A DNA stretch of 39,500 bases, taken from sequence record PP766721.1; one strand, given 5' to 3'. Position 1 is the stretch's first letter. Each line of letters starts with the position of its first letter. Shown here piece by piece: positions 17,081-25,397 of the stretch. The stretch comes from Escherichia phage Baskent_phicoli_1. The notes below the pieces were generated by a model. That model searched no databases and was not told the origin of the DNA. It was given only the letters and a program-made list of their open reading frames with translations. A program made the position numbers and the translations under genes.

Positions 17081-17098
17081 ACTATCACTATAGGAAAC
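17076..17098 (+). promoter_or_regulatory. Phage RNAP promoter (phi17-like), +1 G about 17093
   Basis: TAAACTATCACTATAGGAAA overlapping gene 16 stop. Confidence 0.75.
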
Positions 17099-17144
17099 TG
17101 GAGGCGCTACCATAGGTCTCCGTTTAAATCACAAAGGAGGCATA

Positions 17145-19301
17145 ATGTCCACGATTACACAATTCCCTTCAGGAAACACTCAGTACAGGATTGAGTTCGA
17201 CTACCTAGCCAGAACGTTTGTTGTTGTTACGCTGGTGAATAGCTCTAACCCTACCCTGAACCGTGTACTGGAAGTTGGTAGAGATTACCGATTCCTTAAT
17301 CCAACGATGATTGAGATGTTGGTTGACCAATCAGGTTTCGACATCGTTCGTATTCACCGTCAGACTGGAACTGACTTAGTGGTAGACTTCAGGAATGGCT
17401 CAGTGTTGACAGCTAGTGACCTGACCAATGCAGAGCTTCAGGCTATCCATATTGCAGAGGAAGGTCGAGACCAAACTGTTGACTTAGCGAAGGAATATGC
17501 TGATGCTGCTGGCAGCTCTGCTGGCAACGCTAAGGATAGCGAGGACGAAGCACGACGAATCGCTGAGAGTATCAAGGCAGCTGGTCGCTTTGGCTATATT
17601 ACCCGTCGCTCCTTCGAGAAAGGCTTCAACGTTACAACATGGAACGAGGCCCTGCTATGGGAAGAGGATGGTGATTATTACCGCTGGGATGGTACGCTTC
17701 CAAAGAACGTTCCTGCTGGTTCAACTCCTGAAGCGTCTGGTGGTATTGGTCTTGGTGCGTGGGTTAGCGTTGGTGACGCATCATTACGAGCCGATTTGTC
17801 GTCAAAAGATGGGATGGAATTAATAGGAGGCGACCTTAAATCATACGGAGCAGATGCTTCTGGGTCAACTCCATGTGACAGCCAACTTTCACAAATGCTA
17901 GCTGATAAAAAATTCATAGTTAACTCTGGAACTTACTTAATAACATCTACTATTGAGGTGGACATTTCCTCACTTGAATATGTAGAAGTTGGTCCTGATG
18001 TTGAATTTATCATTAAAAGCAACATTAATGGTTTCATATTTAAGAATCCGAATGCTAATTTCGACGCTAACGGTATGCGTATAACCGTAGACATCCCCGG
18101 AGGTGGATACACAAGTACAGCACTAACCTTAAGGGGGGGTAAATATTACACTGGGCCTGCTAACTTTAGCCGGTTATCCCATAAGAATAAATTTGGACCA
18201 TTTTACGTATACAACAGACAGGGTGCCGTTAAGCAAGAGTCAGCGTCTGCTCCTGTTACCGATGAGGGGTACGGCTTCTCTATAGACTGCAACTCAGCAG
18301 GTGAAGAAATTCTGATATGGAACGAAGTTGATGTCTCATCCACCGGGTTTACTGTTGCTCATGCAATTGGCGTAGGAACCAATCCACTTAACTTTATTTC
18401 ATCTCTTGACCTTAAGTTGGTATCCTGGTTCAGTACATATCACTTCAGGGACACCAGTATCCCGAAATCTGGCGGCAACGTAGCTGGGGGAATTGGGGAT
18501 GTGCGTGTGCGATTACAATCACAACCTCACGCTCAGATGGTTAAAGTTGTGCATATGGAGCACGCACCTGGCTTCATGAGTGGTTGCCGATTTGACCTGT
18601 CAATCTGGGACCCTAACGCCTATGGATATACCGCGAACGTGGTCGATGCATCCGTGACGAACGAATATACAAATACTATGGAGCGGAAAGCATATCCGTT
18701 AACTCGAGTGTTGAACATGGTAGATGGTAGTATATTCCCGGTCGTGAATTACACCAGTAGCATCCAGCAGTCTGATATACTTTCCAGTAGTGACCCTGAA
18801 CTGGCTAAGTACCTGTACCTATCAACTGTAACGCCAGAAATGACAGTGTTACAAGCATGTAACGCTATTAAAACATGGTGTAACGAAAATAACATCCGTA
18901 ATAATTTTGAATTCAAAGTGTTTTTAGGAGACTCTACCGCCGACATACGTAACGTTTTTCTCCCGTGGATAACAGCTATAGGTGACTCCTCAGGATACTT
19001 ACATCTATATGCTACTTTTTACAATGGAATTATAAATACAGTGCGTGTCGAGTACGAGGTTAATCCGATAACCAGCGGCGGAAAGACAGAAAAACACGAA
19101 ATATTATGGACAAACACAACAGGTCTTGTGTTGCATCGCCTGATTGAGTACTCATTCGGTACCACGGCTGAGATAAAAAGCAAGGTAGCCATACAAGTGA
19201 AAGGCTTCACTACTTTTGACTCAACTTTCAACATCCCTGTTTGGTATAATGGCAATAGTTCATGGCTTAAAGCAGACGGTTCTGTGGCATATTCTGCTTA
19301 A
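17145..19301 (+). CDS. gp17: Tail fiber / tailspike: T7 gp17-like N-terminal adaptor fused to a large C-terminal domain (putative polysaccharide depolymerase)
   Basis: 718 aa; N-terminal about 150 aa (FDYLARTFVVVTL, LVVDFRNGSVLTASDL, QAIHIAEEGRD) match T7 gp17; linker WxSVGDASLRADLSSKDG is typical of tailspike beta-helix starts; C-terminal region is visibly AT-rich. Confidence 0.88.
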   Translation: MSTITQFPSGNTQYRIEFDYLARTFVVVTLVNSSNPTLNRVLEVGRDYRFLNPTMIEMLVDQSGFDIVRIHRQTGTDLVVDFRNGSVLTASDLTNAELQAIHIAEEGRDQTVDLAKEYADAAGSSAGNAKDSEDEARRIAESIKAAGRFGYITRRSFEKGFNVTTWNEALLWEEDGDYYRWDGTLPKNVPAGSTPEASGGIGLGAWVSVGDASLRADLSSKDGMELIGGDLKSYGADASGSTPCDSQLSQMLADKKFIVNSGTYLITSTIEVDISSLEYVEVGPDVEFIIKSNINGFIFKNPNANFDANGMRITVDIPGGGYTSTALTLRGGKYYTGPANFSRLSHKNKFGPFYVYNRQGAVKQESASAPVTDEGYGFSIDCNSAGEEILIWNEVDVSSTGFTVAHAIGVGTNPLNFISSLDLKLVSWFSTYHFRDTSIPKSGGNVAGGIGDVRVRLQSQPHAQMVKVVHMEHAPGFMSGCRFDLSIWDPNAYGYTANVVDASVTNEYTNTMERKAYPLTRVLNMVDGSIFPVVNYTSSIQQSDILSSSDPELAKYLYLSTVTPEMTVLQACNAIKTWCNENNIRNNFEFKVFLGDSTADIRNVFLPWITAIGDSSGYLHLYATFYNGIINTVRVEYEVNPITSGGKTEKHEILWTNTTGLVLHRLIEYSFGTTAEIKSKVAIQVKGFTTFDSTFNIPVWYNGNSSWLKADGSVAYSA

Positions 19302-19403
19302 GTCATGGAATAATTGATTGTGGAGGTATAGGCTAACTACACGCTGACCAACGTATGGTAACAACTTTGGGTCACGGACGACCCGCTTTAAACTGGAGGT
19401 TTT

Positions 19404-19598
19404 ATGATTGAGTTAGACTTCAAGAATGAGGTCCTTAAAGCCTCTCCTATCGTCGGGACCGCTGCGGCTGATGGTGCCAGTCGGTTCTTCTTCGGACTTA
19501 CACTGAACGAATGGTTCTACGTTGCAGCTATCGCGTACACCGTTGTCCAGATTGGTGTGCTAGTCTACAAAACGATTAAAGGAGGTGGTAAAACATGA
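19404..19598 (+). CDS. gp17.5: Holin (T7 gp17.5 homolog)
   Basis: 64 aa; LDFxNExxKAxPIVGT...FFGLxLNEWFYVAAIAYTVVQIG nearly identical to T7 gp17.5. Confidence 0.92.
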   Translation: MIELDFKNEVLKASPIVGTAAADGASRFFFGLTLNEWFYVAAIAYTVVQIGVLVYKTIKGGGKT

Positions 19599-20569: not shown

Positions 20570-22333
20570 TTGAGTAAAGACTTAGTGGCGCGTCAGGCGC
20601 TAATGACTGCCCGTATGAAGGCAGACTTCGTGTTCTTCCTGTTCGTCCTGTGGAAAGCTCTGTCGCTCCCAGTCCCGACTCGCTGTCAGATTGACATGGC
20701 GAAGAAACTATCGGCTGGGGACAACAGGCGCTTCATCCTGCAGGCGTTCCGTGGTATCGGGAAGTCCTTCATTACGTGTGCCTTCGTTGTCTGGAAGCTA
20801 TGGAACAACCCAGACTTGAAGTTCATGATTGTGTCGGCCTCAAAGGAACGAGCCGATGCTAACTCCATCTTCATCAAGCGAATCATCGACCTCATGCCTC
20901 AGCTTCAGGAACTCAAACCTAAGCAGGGACAGCGAGATGCGGTTATCAGCTTCGACGTTGGACCAGCCAAGCCCGACCACTCACCTTCGGTTAAGTCCGT
21001 TGGTATCACTGGTCAGTTGACTGGTAGTCGTGCTGACATCCTGATTGCCGATGACGTGGAGGTCCCTAACAACTCAGCGACTCAGGCTGCACGAGACCGT
21101 CTGTCAGAGCTTGTGAAAGAGTTCGACGCTATCCTGAAGCCGGGAGGTACAATCATCTATCTGGGTACTCCTCAGAACGAGATGACCTTGTATCGTGAGC
21201 TGGAAGGCCGTGGATACACCACTACTATCTGGCCTGCTCGTTATCCACGCGATAAGAAGGACTGGCAGTCTTACGGCGACCGTCTGGCACCGATGCTTCA
21301 GGCAGAGCTGGAAGAGGACCCTGAGTCCTTCTACTGGCGTCCGACTGATGAAGTACGCTTCGATGATACGGACCTGAAGGAACGTGAGCTGTCCTATGGT
21401 AAAGCTGGCTTCGCTCTACAGTTCATGCTTAACCCGAACCTTAGTGATGCCGAGAAGTACCCTCTGAAGCTCCGTGACCTTATCGTAGCAGACTTGGACC
21501 CAGCGTCCAGCCCAATGGTCTACCAATGGCTGCCAAACCCTCAGAACAAGCGTGAGGACGTCCCTAACGTTGGACTCATGGGTGACTCATACCACACGTA
21601 TCAGACTGTAGGTTCTGCCTTCAGTTCGTACACCCAGAAGATTCTGGTCATTGACCCTAGTGGTCGTGGTAAGGATGAAACTGGCTATGCGGTACTGTAC
21701 CAGCTCAACGGCTACATCTTCGCTATGGAAGTTGGTGGTATGCGTGGTGGTTATGAAGACTCTACGCTGGAAGCTCTGGCTAAGATTGGTCGTAAGTGGA
21801 AGGTCAACGAATACGTCATTGAGGGTAACTTCGGTGATGGTATGTACCTTGAGCTATTCAAGCCCGTAGCAGCCCGTATCCACCCTGCTGCTGTAACTGA
21901 AGTGAAGAGTAAGGGTCAGAAAGAACTCCGCATCTGTGACGTTCTGGAGCCTATCATGGGGTCTCACCGACTTATCGTTAACGCTGCTGCTATCGTCCAA
22001 GACTACCAGTCGGCCTCTGATAAGGATGGTGTTCGTAACCCTATCTACTCTCTCTTCTACCAGATGACACGTATCTCTCGTGAACGTGGAGCCTTGGCAC
22101 ACGATGACAGACTTGATGCGCTGGCTATCGGTGTACAGTTCTTCGTTGAGTCTATGGCTAAGGATGCCAACAAAGGCGAACGTGAAGTCACTGAGGAGTG
22201 GCTGGAGGAACAGATGGAGAACCCACGGAAAGGCTTCGAGTCCATCCACACTGAGTTCTGGGACAATGGGGTCCGGGTAACTCACGATACGGACGACGAG
22301 CTGGGGCTAGGGTCCTACGTTACGTTTCACTAG
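20570..22333 (+). CDS. gp19: Terminase large subunit (DNA maturase B), gene 19; apparent TTG start
   Basis: 587 aa; [23 protein letters not shown], [76 protein letters not shown], [25 protein letters not shown] essentially as in T7 gp19; AAGGAGG SD 7 nt before TTG. Confidence 0.97.
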
Positions 22334-22427
22334 CTGAATGAATAACTATGGGTGAAAGCTGCATGAATACGCAGTTAGTAACCTATGGTTACAACCAGGC
22401 TAACCTACTGTTTTATAAGAAGTTTGG

Positions 22428-22450
22428 ACTTAACTATCACTATAGGGAAG
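22428..22450 (+). promoter_or_regulatory. Phage RNAP promoter (phiOR-like), +1 G about 22445
   Basis: CTTAACTATCACTATAGGGAAG downstream of terminase gene. Confidence 0.75.
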
Positions 22451-22630
22451 ACCCCCGGTTACTTATAGTATTACTGTAGTGAATATACATATGCAGACTT
22501 TATGCAAGACCTTAGGAGGCAGACTCCGAGTTCTTACCTAAGGCTTGCACCGATGGAAGGAGGGTGATATTAATAATAATCCCTCCAATACAGATAGTCA
22601 CCGACCATAGATACAGGAGGTATGTAGCAT

Positions 22631-22789
22631 ATGGCAAAGACCAAAGCTGTACTTAAAGCTCTGGCGACCAATCGAGCTACATACAGGTTTCTTGCTGCTG
22701 TTCTACTTGCTGCTGGCGTTACTGCTGGAAGTAAGTGGGTCGGGTGGGTCGAGACTCTCGTATGTTCTCTGGTGTCTGAGTGTCATTAA
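22631..22789 (+). CDS. gp19.5: gp19.5 homolog (small membrane protein)
   Basis: 52 aa ORF below the ORF-track cutoff; RxTYRFL, hydrophobic core and SLESVVCS-like end resemble T7 gp19.5; AGGAGG SD. Confidence 0.65.
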   Translation: MAKTKAVLKALATNRATYRFLAAVLLAAGVTAGSKWVGWVETLVCSLVSECH

Positions 22790-22949
22790 CGCCATAATGG
22801 TAACAATCAACGAAAGTAAGACCTAAGGTCAGTTCATAGCTGACGCTACTCTACTGACCTTAGCTACTGTAGTCAAGGACTTTAGGTAACACCTTAAGAG
22901 AAGCTCACTTAGGGTCATCCTACTTATTGGTCTATCCTAGTGTCGCCTG

Positions 22950-22987
22950 ACCTACGGTCCTTGACCTACAGTGGCTGTGGCCTACAG
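22950..22987 (+). repeat. CCTAC(G/A)G heptamer repeats just inside the inferred right genome end
   Basis: CCTACGG...CCTACAG...CCTACAG read directly; analogous to T7 CCTAAAG repeats near the terminal repeat. Confidence 0.55.
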
Positions 22988-23026
22988 TAGTGACGATGAG
23001 TTTTGGACCAAAAGTTTGAGACCACA

Positions 23027-23210
23027 TCTCACAGTTCAAGAACCTCAAGTCTCCCCATAGGCCCTCTTTCAGTCCAGACCAAAGGCCCTACCCAGTCTAT
23101 CATAAGGTTGGACCGATGGTCAAGACTTCAGGTCAACGATAGGTTGAGGCTATGGCTGGAGGTCGGGACGATAGGTTGGGACTATGGGTCTGTCTCTGAG
23201 TCTCTATCTG
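23027..23210 (+). repeat. Inferred left genome end and direct terminal repeat (collapsed to one copy here)
   Basis: TCTCACAGTTCAAGAACC...CCCCATAGG matches the T7 left end TCTCACAGTGTACGGACC...CCCCCATAGGGGG; the 3' boundary of the repeat is a guess. Confidence 0.45.
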
Positions 23211-23240
23211 TATAGTGTTATAGTATAACATTACGTCCTA

Positions 23241-23310
23241 CACCTACAGTCTCACTACCTACAGTCTCCGACCATGAGACACTCACTACCTACAGTCATA
23301 GACCTACAGA
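23241..23310 (+). repeat. Array of four (A)CCTACAG(T) heptamer repeats downstream of the terminal repeat
   Basis: ACCTACAGTCTC, CTACCTACAGTCTCC, CTACCTACAGTCAT, GACCTACAGATAA read directly. Confidence 0.6.
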
Positions 23311-23422
23311 TAATAGACATAAAGCTATAGACTTAAGGTCTAAGACATGTTAGTCAAAAGACTACATCCTCTTACACCATGGGGCCGACGATAGCTTAAT
23401 TAATATTATTTCAAATTACCTA

Positions 23423-23452
23423 TTGACTATAGGTCTAGACTGTGGCTTAATA
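23423..23452 (+). promoter_or_regulatory. Host sigma70-type early promoter (A1-like)
   Basis: TTGACT at 23423-23428, 17-bp spacer, CTTAAT; AT-rich UP-like tract upstream; T7 A1 also has TTGACT. Confidence 0.55.
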
Positions 23453-23563
23453 GCTTCCGTCAACACGACACGGCAACAACCGGATAGTGAAGACGCCGGG
23501 TCATCCCGGTTAAGTAGACAGCCTGATAAGTCATACGAACAACAGGCAGATGACAGAAAGTAG

Positions 23564-23593
23564 TTGACAAGCAGTAACGACTTAAAGTAGTAT
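23564..23593 (+). promoter_or_regulatory. Host sigma70-type early promoter (A2-like)
   Basis: TTGACA at 23564-23569, 18-bp spacer, TAGTAT; flanks match the T7 A2 region (ACAGGxxTTGACAA). Confidence 0.6.
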
Positions 23594-23711
23594 GTACCAC
23601 GTAGCAAGATGGCGTAGGGATAGGAACCGAGAAACCTGCCAGAGGCCAGCCAAGGATAAGGCACCAGCCGTGAGTCGAATTCGGTCACTCACCGCATAAA
23701 AGAATAACAGG

Positions 23712-23740
23712 TTGACAGCCTCCTTTAAAAGCTGTAAGCT
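23712..23740 (+). promoter_or_regulatory. Host sigma70-type early promoter (A3-like)
   Basis: TTGACA at 23712-23717, 17-bp spacer, TAAGCT; downstream CCACATCGAAACGACGGTGA matches T7 A3 context CCACATGAAACGACAGTGA. Confidence 0.6.
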
Positions 23741-23941
23741 GTGCCACATCGAAACGACGGTGAAGCCTAACACTGAAACAGGCTAGCACGGCGACGACAG
23801 CCAATGCGAATGCTCTTTAACAATCTGGATAAACTCTTAATGTGCGCCGATAGCGACTAACTACAGGGTCTTTGAGTCTACATCTGAAGGCCCTGACTGA
23901 TAGTCACTAACATACACAAACAACTTTGAGAGGATATAACT

Positions 23942-24277
23942 ATGGAACGTAACGCTAACGCATACTATGAGCTGCTGGCTGCAACCGTTGAAGCATTTAA
24001 CGAGAGCATTCAGTACGACAAAATAGCTGAAGGTGATGACTACAGCGATGCGCTGCATGAAGTCGTAGACAGTCATGTTCCGCACTATTACCACGAGATT
24101 TTCACGGTGATGGCTGCTGATGGTATTGACCATGAGTTCGAAGACTCTGGGCTGATGCCTGAGACCAAGGACGTAACGCGTATACTACAAGCTCGCATTT
24201 ATGAAGCACTGTATAACGATGTATCTAATAGCTCGGATGTAGTCTGGTTCGAGTCTACTGAGGAGGAATGCGAGTGA
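23942..24277 (+). CDS. ocr: Ocr (gene 0.3) DNA-mimic anti-restriction protein
   Basis: 111 aa, very acidic; VPHYYxxIFxVMAxxGIDxEFEDSGLMPxTKDVxRILQARIYE nearly identical to T7 Ocr. Confidence 0.92.
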   Translation: MERNANAYYELLAATVEAFNESIQYDKIAEGDDYSDALHEVVDSHVPHYYHEIFTVMAADGIDHEFEDSGLMPETKDVTRILQARIYEALYNDVSNSSDVVWFESTEEECE

Positions 24278-24429
24278 TGGTAACTTATGGCCTATGCCAG
24301 CACCACGTCACCAACGCCCGGCTTATGGTCAAGACCGGGCAGTTAAACCACGATGCGATTATGCGTCACCTGAAGGCGGTCTATGAGGGCCGCAAGCGTA
24401 TACACGACAGTTTGCACGCTGAGGTGTAA
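24277..24429 (+). CDS. Small early protein at gene 0.4 position (50 aa)
   Basis: ORF below track cutoff, ATG overlapping ocr stop (TGATG); function unassigned. Confidence 0.4.
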   Translation: MVTYGLCQHHVTNARLMVKTGQLNHDAIMRHLKAVYEGRKRIHDSLHAEV

Positions 24430-24456
24430 CTTACTGGCGGGTACTGAGTGATAAAT

Positions 24457-24490
24457 GAGAGGTCATCGACTGATAGGTGGCCTCAAAGAT
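24457..24490 (+). promoter_or_regulatory. Conserved structured element (putative RNase III site, R0.5-like)
   Basis: GAGAGGTCAT-N11-GTGGCCTCAAAGATTA, variant of the AGGTCAT...GTGGCCTT element. Confidence 0.45.
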
Positions 24491-24517
24491 TACCACTTGC
24501 ATTAATAGGAGTTAACT

Positions 24518-24685
24518 ATGAAATTTACAATCATCGCACTTTATGTAACCATTATTCTATCTTGGCTTACTGCGGTGCTCACTGATGGGAACGCATTACG
24601 ACTGGGATGGCTGGCAGTGGACATTATATTCTCTCCGGTAGGGGTCGTGCGGGGCATCTTGATGTGGTTTGGATTGGTGGGATAA
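24518..24685 (+). CDS. Small hydrophobic early protein (55 aa, predicted membrane)
   Basis: MKFTIIALYVTIILSWLTAVL... with AGGAG SD 6 nt upstream; below track cutoff. Confidence 0.4.
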   Translation: MKFTIIALYVTIILSWLTAVLTDGNALRLGWLAVDIIFSPVGVVRGILMWFGLVG

Positions 24686-24774
24686 ACTATGAGTATTGGA
24701 CATTGGGTATGCCTAGCGCCAGTTATCTCGATGATAGGTTATGGGATATATGATTGTATTAAACGGAAATCACT

Positions 24775-24972
24775 ATGAGTCTTGCACTATTGATAGCCAT
24801 AGGATATGGACTTATCGCCTACGTGCTGATGAGAGACATCAACAAAGCGCGTAAAGTCTACAAATTCAACTATGTACGGCTGGGCCGCTGGACTGTACGT
24901 CAACCTAACGGACGATTCATGCGAAACTTAGCGAACGTCTGGGACATAGCAACTCTGGGAGGTAAACTGTGA
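24775..24972 (+). CDS. Small early protein with N-terminal TM helix (65 aa)
   Basis: MSLALLIAIGYGLIAYVLM then basic tail; coupled upstream and downstream. Confidence 0.5.
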   Translation: MSLALLIAIGYGLIAYVLMRDINKARKVYKFNYVRLGRWTVRQPNGRFMRNLANVWDIATLGGKL

Positions 24973-25397
24973 TGGAAAAGCTATGCAGAACATGCCACGC
25001 TTTAAAGCCGCTGGAAGAGTACCACAAGCATAAAACCTCCAAAGACGGCAGGGAGAGTCAGTGTAAGACTTGCCGCAATAAGCAGATTATGAAGACCAGG
25101 AAACTACGATACAGTAAGTCTGCTAGCTTCAGGGAGTCTAAACGGAACGAAACCCTGCGTAAACTGTACGGGATTACAGTAGATGACTATGAGGAGATGT
25201 TTAAGCGGCAGGGCGGGGTGTGCGCTATCTGTCATCAGCCGGAAACTGGTAACATACGAATGGCGGTAGACCACTGTCATGCAAGTGGTAAAGTTCGCGG
25301 GCTACTGTGTAAAAACTGCAACACTGCGCTAGGAAACCTAAAAGACTCGATTGAGATTCTCACAAACGCAATCACATATCTTCAGGAGAACAATTAA
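24969..25397 (+). CDS. Endonuclease VII-family (HNH-fold) nuclease, probable homing endonuclease
   Basis: 142 aa; GGVCAICHQPETGNIRMAVDHCHASGKVRGLLCKNCNTALG aligns with T4 endonuclease VII GKCLICQREL...HLDHDHELNGPKAGKVRGLLCNLCNAAEG; extra N-terminal CxxC...CxxC. Confidence 0.8.
   Translation: MMEKLCRTCHALKPLEEYHKHKTSKDGRESQCKTCRNKQIMKTRKLRYSKSASFRESKRNETLRKLYGITVDDYEEMFKRQGGVCAICHQPETGNIRMAVDHCHASGKVRGLLCKNCNTALGNLKDSIEILTNAITYLQENN

Follow-up and report, generated by a model that had tools for sequence, protein, structure and literature searches.

The gene at positions 17145 to 19301 (plus strand) of Escherichia phage Baskent_phicoli_1 encodes a mosaic tailspike, in which a T7-type anchor and a neck domain are followed by an exchanged receptor-binding module. 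We analyzed it within the window, that is, the whole 39,500-nucleotide (nt) stretch of sequence record PP766721.1. That the protein is a mosaic beta-helix tailspike acquired as a cassette is very likely. We also consider it probable that it serves a T7-type podophage as an O-antigen depolymerase, with an O-antigen of the Escherichia coli O11/Salmonella O16 type as the most likely substrate. The first-pass annotation of this DNA had proposed a receptor-binding depolymerase module, a reading that our analysis supports and in which catalysis and receptor are predicted. The paper describing the phage gives a 39,500-bp genome with a G+C content (GC) of 50.06%, membership in Kayfunavirus, and the accession PP766721 (PMC13319148); it does not treat the tail protein, the receptor, depolymerase activity, or halos.

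Architecture of the tailspike and edges of the exchanged cassette

In the list of open reading frames (ORFs) of the window, the gene is an ATG-to-stop ORF encoding 718 amino acids (aa). The first-pass annotation had its limits exactly right, and the peptides quoted there occur in the translation. Opposite-strand ORFs inside it are each shorter than 80 aa. The protein is 100% identical to UniRef entry A0AAU8B8R4, "Tail protein" of Escherichia phage Baskent_phicoli_1. The gene follows that of a gp16-like internal virion protein and precedes the holin and terminase genes, which is the gene 17 slot of a T7-like genome, and the locus is collinear with those of the annotated phages CLB_P1 and CHX131. 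ORF, UniRef identity, and synteny together identify it as a gene 17 homologue. CLB_P1 (L003 3501-5779) has a 325-aa anchor gp17 and a separate 430-aa gp17.1 where Baskent_phicoli_1 has a single fused gene; such a split into an anchor and a second protein has also been described elsewhere (PMC10408124).

The N-terminal tail-docking domain is of the T7 gp17 type. Pfam family PF03906 (Phage_T7_tail) matches aa 10-115 (17172-17489, plus strand) with an E value of 3.4e-16 and 59.7 bits (gathering cutoff, 25.2), and the T7 gp17 chains of PDB entries 7boz, 8dsp, and 8e4g align to aa 6-116 with E values of about 1e-16 to 1e-18. The likeness to T7 gp17 had been recognized in the first-pass annotation, which put its length at about 150 residues; it is detectable over about 115. 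The DNA encoding this anchor is ~96% identical to that of many Kayfunaviruses, and, judging from its sequence, the domain is expected to dock the spike on the tail. The stretch that follows had been described as a linker of the kind that comes before beta-helix depolymerase tailspikes. It is a recognized domain, namely, a Tail_spike_N (TSP1/Gp66-type) neck at aa 155-211 (17607-17777, plus strand; PF18668, E value of 6.5e-20, 71.4 bits, gathering cutoff of 25). Residues 145-229 align with the N-terminal parts of CBA120 TSP1, TSP3, and TSP4 (PDB 4oj5, 5w6f, and 5w6h).

PDB entry 9vvr ("Tail spike protein," 843 aa), for which we found no paper, is near-identical to the Baskent_phicoli_1 protein over aa 1-220 (E value of 1e-136) and thus shares its anchor and neck, but past aa ~225 the likeness collapses, and the two receptor-binding bodies show no sequence relationship. 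CBA120 TSP1-4 and G7C gp66 also carry PF18668, but body identity is only 6-12%, and these proteins belong to branched multispike assemblies, whereas Baskent_phicoli_1 has a single spike gene.

The break from the genus could be mapped closely. Over its first ~650 nt, the gene shares 94-97% identity with dozens of Kayfunaviruses, and none of the 163 matching phage records extends over the remainder. Backbone homology to CLB_P1 and CHX131 stops at 17782-17812 and restarts at 19318, as determined by BLAST. A four-way DNA alignment and these BLAST limits place the left recombination junction at 17733-17790 (plus strand), where the sequence is Kayfunavirus-like to ~17732 and like that of the siphophage AB4P2 from ~17790; the junction lies inside the codons of a conserved stretch, GGIGLGAWVSVGDASLR, at the end of PF18668. 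At the right junction (19314-19318, plus strand), 13-17 nt past the stop codon, AB4P2-like sequence continues to 19314 and the Kayfunavirus backbone resumes at 19318. Over 17669-19312, nucleotide identity to the tail fiber gene of AB4P2 (OR544125, a 45.7-kb genome with siphovirus-type tail genes) is 89.1%. Pas et al. (2023, Virol J 20:174) proposed conserved motifs as recombination hotspots and described "motif one/two" at the anchor end (PMC10408124); the mapped junctions fit that motif-based mechanism.

The exchanged receptor-binding cassette between these junctions (17790-19314, plus strand), delimited by the homology break and by composition, has a GC of 0.426, compared with 0.504 in the remaining genome, and is the lowest 1.5-kb stretch. 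The AT-richness of about 17800-19301, previously judged by eye, was borne out by the computed sliding GC. The value for 17800-19301 is 0.427 (0.5006 for the whole window), which is ~3.3 standard deviations (SD) under the mean of all 1.5-kb windows (0.500; SD, 0.0225); only 0.26% of 1.5-kb windows are as AT-rich, and every one overlaps that region. Low GC and loss of homology to other Kayfunaviruses fall on the same segment. GC at third codon positions (GC3) is 0.414 in the tailspike gene, the lowest among the 21 ATG-initiated plus-strand ORFs of at least 150 aa in the window, the others ranging from 0.49 to 0.64, so the AT bias is not solely an amino acid effect. A pure effect of amino acid composition was ruled out on this ground and because the edges are homology breakpoints. 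Outside the tailspike gene, GC is also low, though less so, at 22000-25000 (0.456-0.472 per kb).

The module had been called recently acquired. Its acquisition stands, and "recent" holds only in the sense of after the split from relatives that are ~95% identical. The module is AT-rich in the other carriers examined too (GC of 0.417 versus 0.458 in the surroundings in AB4P2 and 0.395 versus 0.43 in BEK6), so that AT-richness marks the module and not its arrival date.

A shared module with a predicted beta-helix

The ~490 residues from aa ~230 to 718 have no match in Pfam, PHROGs, NCBIfam, or the PDB (searched with the single sequence and, for the PDB, with the family profile) apart from a short C-terminal motif, in agreement with the first-pass statement that about 500 residues have no T7 counterpart. 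An exhaustive phmmer search of 1.84 billion representatives grouped the module family into just 12 clusters at 50% identity. The distant members were not recovered when the family profile was used in a second search, based on a word index. Residues 231-718 are 59-95% identical, at 98-100% coverage, to at least 30 proteins. Across the family, the module follows a variety of N termini. Siphophage fibers of 630-639 aa have PF18668 as their only anchor (92-95% identity to the Baskent_phicoli_1 module). An Ackermannviridae-type phage (contigs up to ~155 kb) carries the module in a 763-aa protein, the third of four tailspike genes (84%), and an N4-like phage of ~72 kb carries it in proteins of 893-897 aa (84-86%). 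Fibers of ~830 aa in Drexlerviridae BEK6 and its relatives are 62-64% identical, and 618-aa proteins of Salmonella and E. coli prophages, which begin with the P22 head-binding domain PF09008, are 59-72% identical. Vibrio phages have copies at 33-35% identity behind a P2-type tail-collar N terminus.

In a distance tree of the module, the Baskent_phicoli_1 copy falls among lytic-phage copies, sister to the prophage clade associated with O11/O16. Identity is uneven along the module. Relative to a P22-like prophage tailspike (P0014) it is 77% in the beta-helix, 96.5% in aa 488-544, and 55% in the C-terminal domain, and relative to an Ackermannviridae-type tailspike (P0010) it is 75%, 100%, and 92.5%, respectively. 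On alignment evidence, the unevenness around aa 488-545 indicates either sub-module recombination or very strong constraint.

Several carriers are unusual in their own right. One protein (P0018, 698 aa) has both PF09008 and PF18668 before the module, that is, temperate-type plus lytic-type anchors. OR544125, "Acinetobacter phage vB_AbaM_AB4P2" (L001 5741-7633), bears a myovirus label yet has siphovirus-type tail genes, and its tail fiber C-terminal module is 94% identical at the protein level to that of Baskent_phicoli_1, in a family otherwise known only from enterobacterial and Vibrio phages; we regard the host or morphotype label of AB4P2 as doubtful. The P22-like tailspike clusters also contain short fragments (P0065, P0066, P0074, and P0079; 81 and 153 aa) that are annotated as hypothetical proteins and occur on 397 and 200 Salmonella contigs, complete chromosomes included, which suggests that remnants of this tailspike gene are widespread.

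Structure prediction of the C-terminal part, which the first-pass annotation had named as a check, gave a right-handed parallel beta-helix at aa ~231-502 (17835-18650, plus strand). The AlphaFold2 model of aa 221-718 has short regular strands, a mean predicted local distance difference test (pLDDT) score of 70, and a predicted template modeling (pTM) score of 0.55. Along the same model, pLDDT exceeds 90 across the first ~100 residues and falls below 50 at aa 488-545; the low value there recurs in both models, and a more diverse alignment did not bring aa 480-543 into the model. Klebsiella Depo32, K5 lyase, Acinetobacter tailspikes, and Phi92 colanidase are among the closest structural neighbors. 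Further structural comparison of the body gave 9-14% identity, root mean square deviations of 7-12 Å, and other terminal domains, a likeness at the level of fold only. From the model, the beta-helix is presumed to be the polysaccharide-binding, catalytic body.

Six acidic positions (D316, D436, D452, D489, D501, and E513) are conserved family-wide in an alignment of 29 members, some at 20-40% identity, as are, among others, W428, W488, Q460, K467, N506, and Y508. The conserved positions lie mostly in the distal beta-helix and in the unmodeled stretch. The latter, at aa 488-545 (18606-18779, plus strand), is distinguished by invariant columns (W488, D489, D501, N506, Y508, E513, and S538) and may, in view of the models, be an inter-subunit element. 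A modeled C-terminal alpha/beta domain follows at aa 545-718 (18777-19298, plus strand), for which structure comparison found no known counterpart; the only profile match is a short motif in the last ~30 residues that is common with the C terminus of PDB 9d83 chain D (Gp49).

Two known systems place this body in context. K1F gp17, the type Kayfunavirus tailspike, joins a T7-type anchor to a sialidase beta-propeller and a C-terminal Peptidase_S74 intramolecular chaperone. The Baskent_phicoli_1 protein resembles it in having a T7-type anchor and a swapped domain, presumably enzymatic here as well, in the same genomic slot, but differs in its predicted beta-helix body and in that no S74 domain was detected. 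A C-terminal S74 chaperone was rejected as a candidate, as the protein has no PF13884 match and its C-terminal domain has no structural match. P22 gp9 and the Sf6 and HK620 tailspikes are trimeric beta-helix O-antigen endoglycosidases. In prophages, relatives of the module (59-72% identity) follow the head-binding domain of P22, PF09008, and their genes occupy the same position, beside O-antigen conversion genes. In contrast, P22-type catalytic bodies show no detectable sequence similarity to the Baskent_phicoli_1 body, the anchor here is that of T7 and not a head-binding domain, and the fold of the C-terminal domain is unmatched in this comparison.

O-antigen association and the candidate substrate

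The evidence for a substrate comes from the hosts of the prophage relatives. The Salmonella P22-like versions occupy the classic gene 9 position downstream of Arc/Mnt, and 3' of the tailspike gene lie an Acyl_transf_3 gene and then a GT2 (GtrB-like) gene, both typical of O-antigen conversion. Among 5,426 complete E. coli genomes, three carry the module, and in the galF-gnd O-antigen clusters of all three, wzx and wzy are annotated as "O11 family." The O11 wzy gene is found in 66 of the 5,426 genomes (1.2%), and the chance of three out of three is 1.7e-6, assuming independent genomes. Two integration sites are represented, argW in EC187792 and thrW, with a degraded prophage, in MB06232, and the three E. 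coli tailspikes fall in two 90% clusters. Little is left of the P22-like thrW prophage of MB06232 (L018 3676-9573) apart from its integrase gene, part of a DNA-transfer gene, the tailspike gene, which is notably still intact, and the adjoining acyltransferase gene. In the O11 lysogen EC187792 (L014 23302-24279), the chain length regulator gene wzzB is a pseudogene with an internal stop.

The O-antigens of E. coli O11 and S. enterica O16 are closely related, according to the title of Li et al. (2011; cited in PMC7685785), and Salmonella carriers are therefore predicted to be O:16. The serovar names found on members of the clusters are Saphra, Orientalis, Hvittingfoss, Redlands, and Gaminara. 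We take Saphra, Orientalis, and Redlands to be O:16 in the White-Kauffmann-Le Minor scheme. PMC4777767 gives O:16 for Gaminara (16:d:1,7) and for Hvittingfoss (16:b:e,n,x). Salmonella and E. coli proteins are mixed within the same 90% clusters. The association of the prophage relatives with O11/O16 hosts is statistically strong, and inference from prophage to host is also the logic behind "group D" of Pas et al. (PMC10408124).

We propose that the gene encodes the sole receptor-binding protein (RBP) of the phage, which would be a trimeric tailspike with three layers. The genus-conserved T7 gp17-type domain would fix the spike to the tail; the PF18668 neck would form the second layer, its conserved coding sequence acting as the left crossover site; and the third would be a ~1.5-kb cassette from a pool common to many enterobacterial phages, comprising the beta-helix and the orphan C-terminal domain. 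The beta-helix would bind the host O-antigen and cleave it as an endoglycosidase by means of some of D316, D436, D452, D489, D501, and E513, allowing the virion to descend through the lipopolysaccharide layer to the outer membrane in the fashion of P22-type tailspikes. The likeliest substrate would be an O-antigen of the E. coli O11/Salmonella O:16 type or a near variant. Such a substrate would account for the host range, as the phage lysed only its isolation host, CREC-5 (E. coli ST1432) (PMC13319148). We hold it reasonably likely that the module is an O-antigen-directed depolymerase, and put an O11-type receptor for Baskent_phicoli_1 itself at somewhat short of an even chance. Genes for the GDP-fucose/mannose, GalE, and Gnu pathways and for glycosyltransferases make up the O11 cluster, and no uronic acid functions were seen within it; this content and the conserved carboxylates weakly favor hydrolase chemistry.

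A number of observations weigh against an O11/O16-specific depolymerase. The Baskent_phicoli_1 module belongs to the lytic-phage clade, which is only sister to the prophage clade linked to O11/O16; identity to the prophage copies in the beta-helix is 67-77%, and proteins that are 60-75% identical can differ in specificity. Specificity is often kept at such a distance, as in the Det7 and P22 tailspikes, although this is not guaranteed. The O11 genomes could be kin, which would weaken the value of 1.7e-6. One close carrier is labeled an Acinetobacter phage, and BEK6 was propagated on the rough K-12-type strain K514. The model of aa 221-718 is of medium quality (pLDDT of 70; pTM of 0.55), and most invariant residues sit in its unmodeled segment, aa 488-545. 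The protein matches no beta-helix Pfam family, such as PF12708; its relatives P0010, P0035, and P0039 reach 17-23 bits (cutoff, 27) over the first ~45 profile positions of a curated beta-helix family. We found no report of catalysis or binding for members of the family. Plaques are described as clear and 2 mm across in the phage paper, with no mention of a halo (PMC13319148), and no serotype for the host CREC-5/ST1432 was found there or elsewhere.

Other functions for the module have to be considered alongside. It could be a depolymerase of capsule (K-antigen) or another exopolysaccharide, with an indirect O11/O16 link. Kayfunaviruses include capsule-specific members, of which K1F with its endosialidase is one; capsule depolymerases are frequent among the closest structural neighbors (Depo32, K5 lyase, the Acinetobacter tailspikes, and Phi92 colanidase); and RBP subtypes that span several O serogroups may target K antigens (PMC10408124). 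However, the carriers follow one O-antigen type in two genera, with three of three E. coli being O11 and the named Salmonella serovars all O:16, and O-antigen modification genes adjoin the prophage tailspike. To our knowledge, the named Salmonella serovars are not known for capsules. We therefore consider a capsule or exopolysaccharide target unlikely.

It is slightly less likely again that the beta-helix is a noncatalytic, adhesin-type spike that only binds, leaving penetration of the layer to other means. The six acidic positions are kept family-wide down to 20-40% identity, the module takes the place of the P22-type catalytic body behind the same head-binding domain, and the characterized P22-type O-antigen tailspikes (P22, Sf6, and HK620) are receptor-destroying enzymes (see also the introduction of PMC10408124). 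A receptor-modifying chemistry other than that of a glycoside hydrolase, for instance that of an O-antigen deacetylase/esterase or a lyase, seems the most improbable of the three. The conserved residues are carboxylates, and neither a Ser-His-Asp nor an SGNH signature was found with Pfam or in the 29-member alignment. A lyase is weakly disfavored because the O11 cluster lacks in-cluster uronic acid functions.

An O-antigen depolymerase remains the preferred reading, and a more specific version of it is possible, though we advance it tentatively. The module would represent an undescribed family of O11/O:16-specific endoglycosidases with an active site lying partly in aa 488-545 and a new C-terminal fold, distributed over at least six phage lineages and two host genera and still recombining. 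If this is true, Baskent_phicoli_1 would be the first lytic phage in culture for which O11 specificity is predicted.

Genomic setting and implications

The tailspike gene is preceded by the core of a T7-type phage RNA polymerase promoter, TCACTATAGG, at 17085-17094 (plus strand), within the Kayfunavirus backbone and outside the swapped cassette, and by a Shine-Dalgarno sequence, AAGGAGG, read off at 17134-17140 (plus strand), 4 nt before the ATG at 17145. The window holds 11 copies of the core (nine exact), all on the plus strand, at 1303, 4124, 5130, 9808, 17085, 22437, 23424, 25717, 29263, 30993, and 32085. By chance, 2.5 are expected, and none of 100 shuffles reached 11. These copies are probably the phage RNA polymerase promoter set, a reading for which we assume what is generally known of T7-group promoters. 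No intrinsic terminator was found from the tailspike stop codon to the holin gene; the RNA of 19296-19405 is predicted to fold no more stably than shuffled sequences (z, +1.18), and sigma-70-like sites in the same check of downstream signals were at or below chance level.

The genome is at odds with the reported virion. The phage paper describes siphovirus morphology with a 210-nm noncontractile tail and a "tape measure protein" (PMC13319148), whereas the genome, with its genes for gp16-type internal virion proteins and for a T7-type anchor on the tail fiber, is that of a T7-like Kayfunavirus. Either the phage in the micrograph is not the one in the lysate, or its morphology was misinterpreted.

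An anchor and neck with a swapped beta-helix receptor-binding domain is a well-established, textbook tailspike layout that has already been described for Kayfunaviruses (PMC10408124). Pas et al. found the tailspikes of E. coli phages to be modular, Kayfunavirus RBPs included, and their set shares with the protein studied here a genus-conserved N-terminal anchor and a horizontally exchanged C-terminal receptor-binding domain. The exchange partners also match, namely, Kayfunavirus, N4-like (Gamaleyavirus), Ackermannviridae-type (Kuttervirus), and P22-like prophages (Lederbergvirus). Their 14 serogroup-assigned subtypes (O2, O8, O16, O18, O22, O26, O45, O77, O78, O103, O104, O111, O145, and O157) do not include O11 (PMC10408124), and the module described here differs from that set in lacking a counterpart in Pfam, PHROGs, or the PDB. 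Our finding leaves the accepted view of tailspike modularity as it was. What it adds is modest: the precise cassette edges, the breadth of carriers, and the O11/O16 host association, together with a modeled beta-helix and orphan C-terminal domain in a family that has neither a curated model nor a solved structure.

Tailspike modules determine the host range of therapeutic phages. Baskent_phicoli_1 has been proposed for therapy against carbapenem-resistant E. coli, and its lysis of a single strain is left unexplained in its paper. The link between module and O-antigen offers a testable account of that host range, under which susceptible strains would be predictable by in silico serotyping; Hvittingfoss and Gaminara are among the Salmonella O:16 serovars. 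By engineering, the receptor-binding domain could be swapped at the mapped junctions, which lie in conserved sequence, and the module would supply an O11/O16 subtype for catalogues that relate tailspikes to serogroups.

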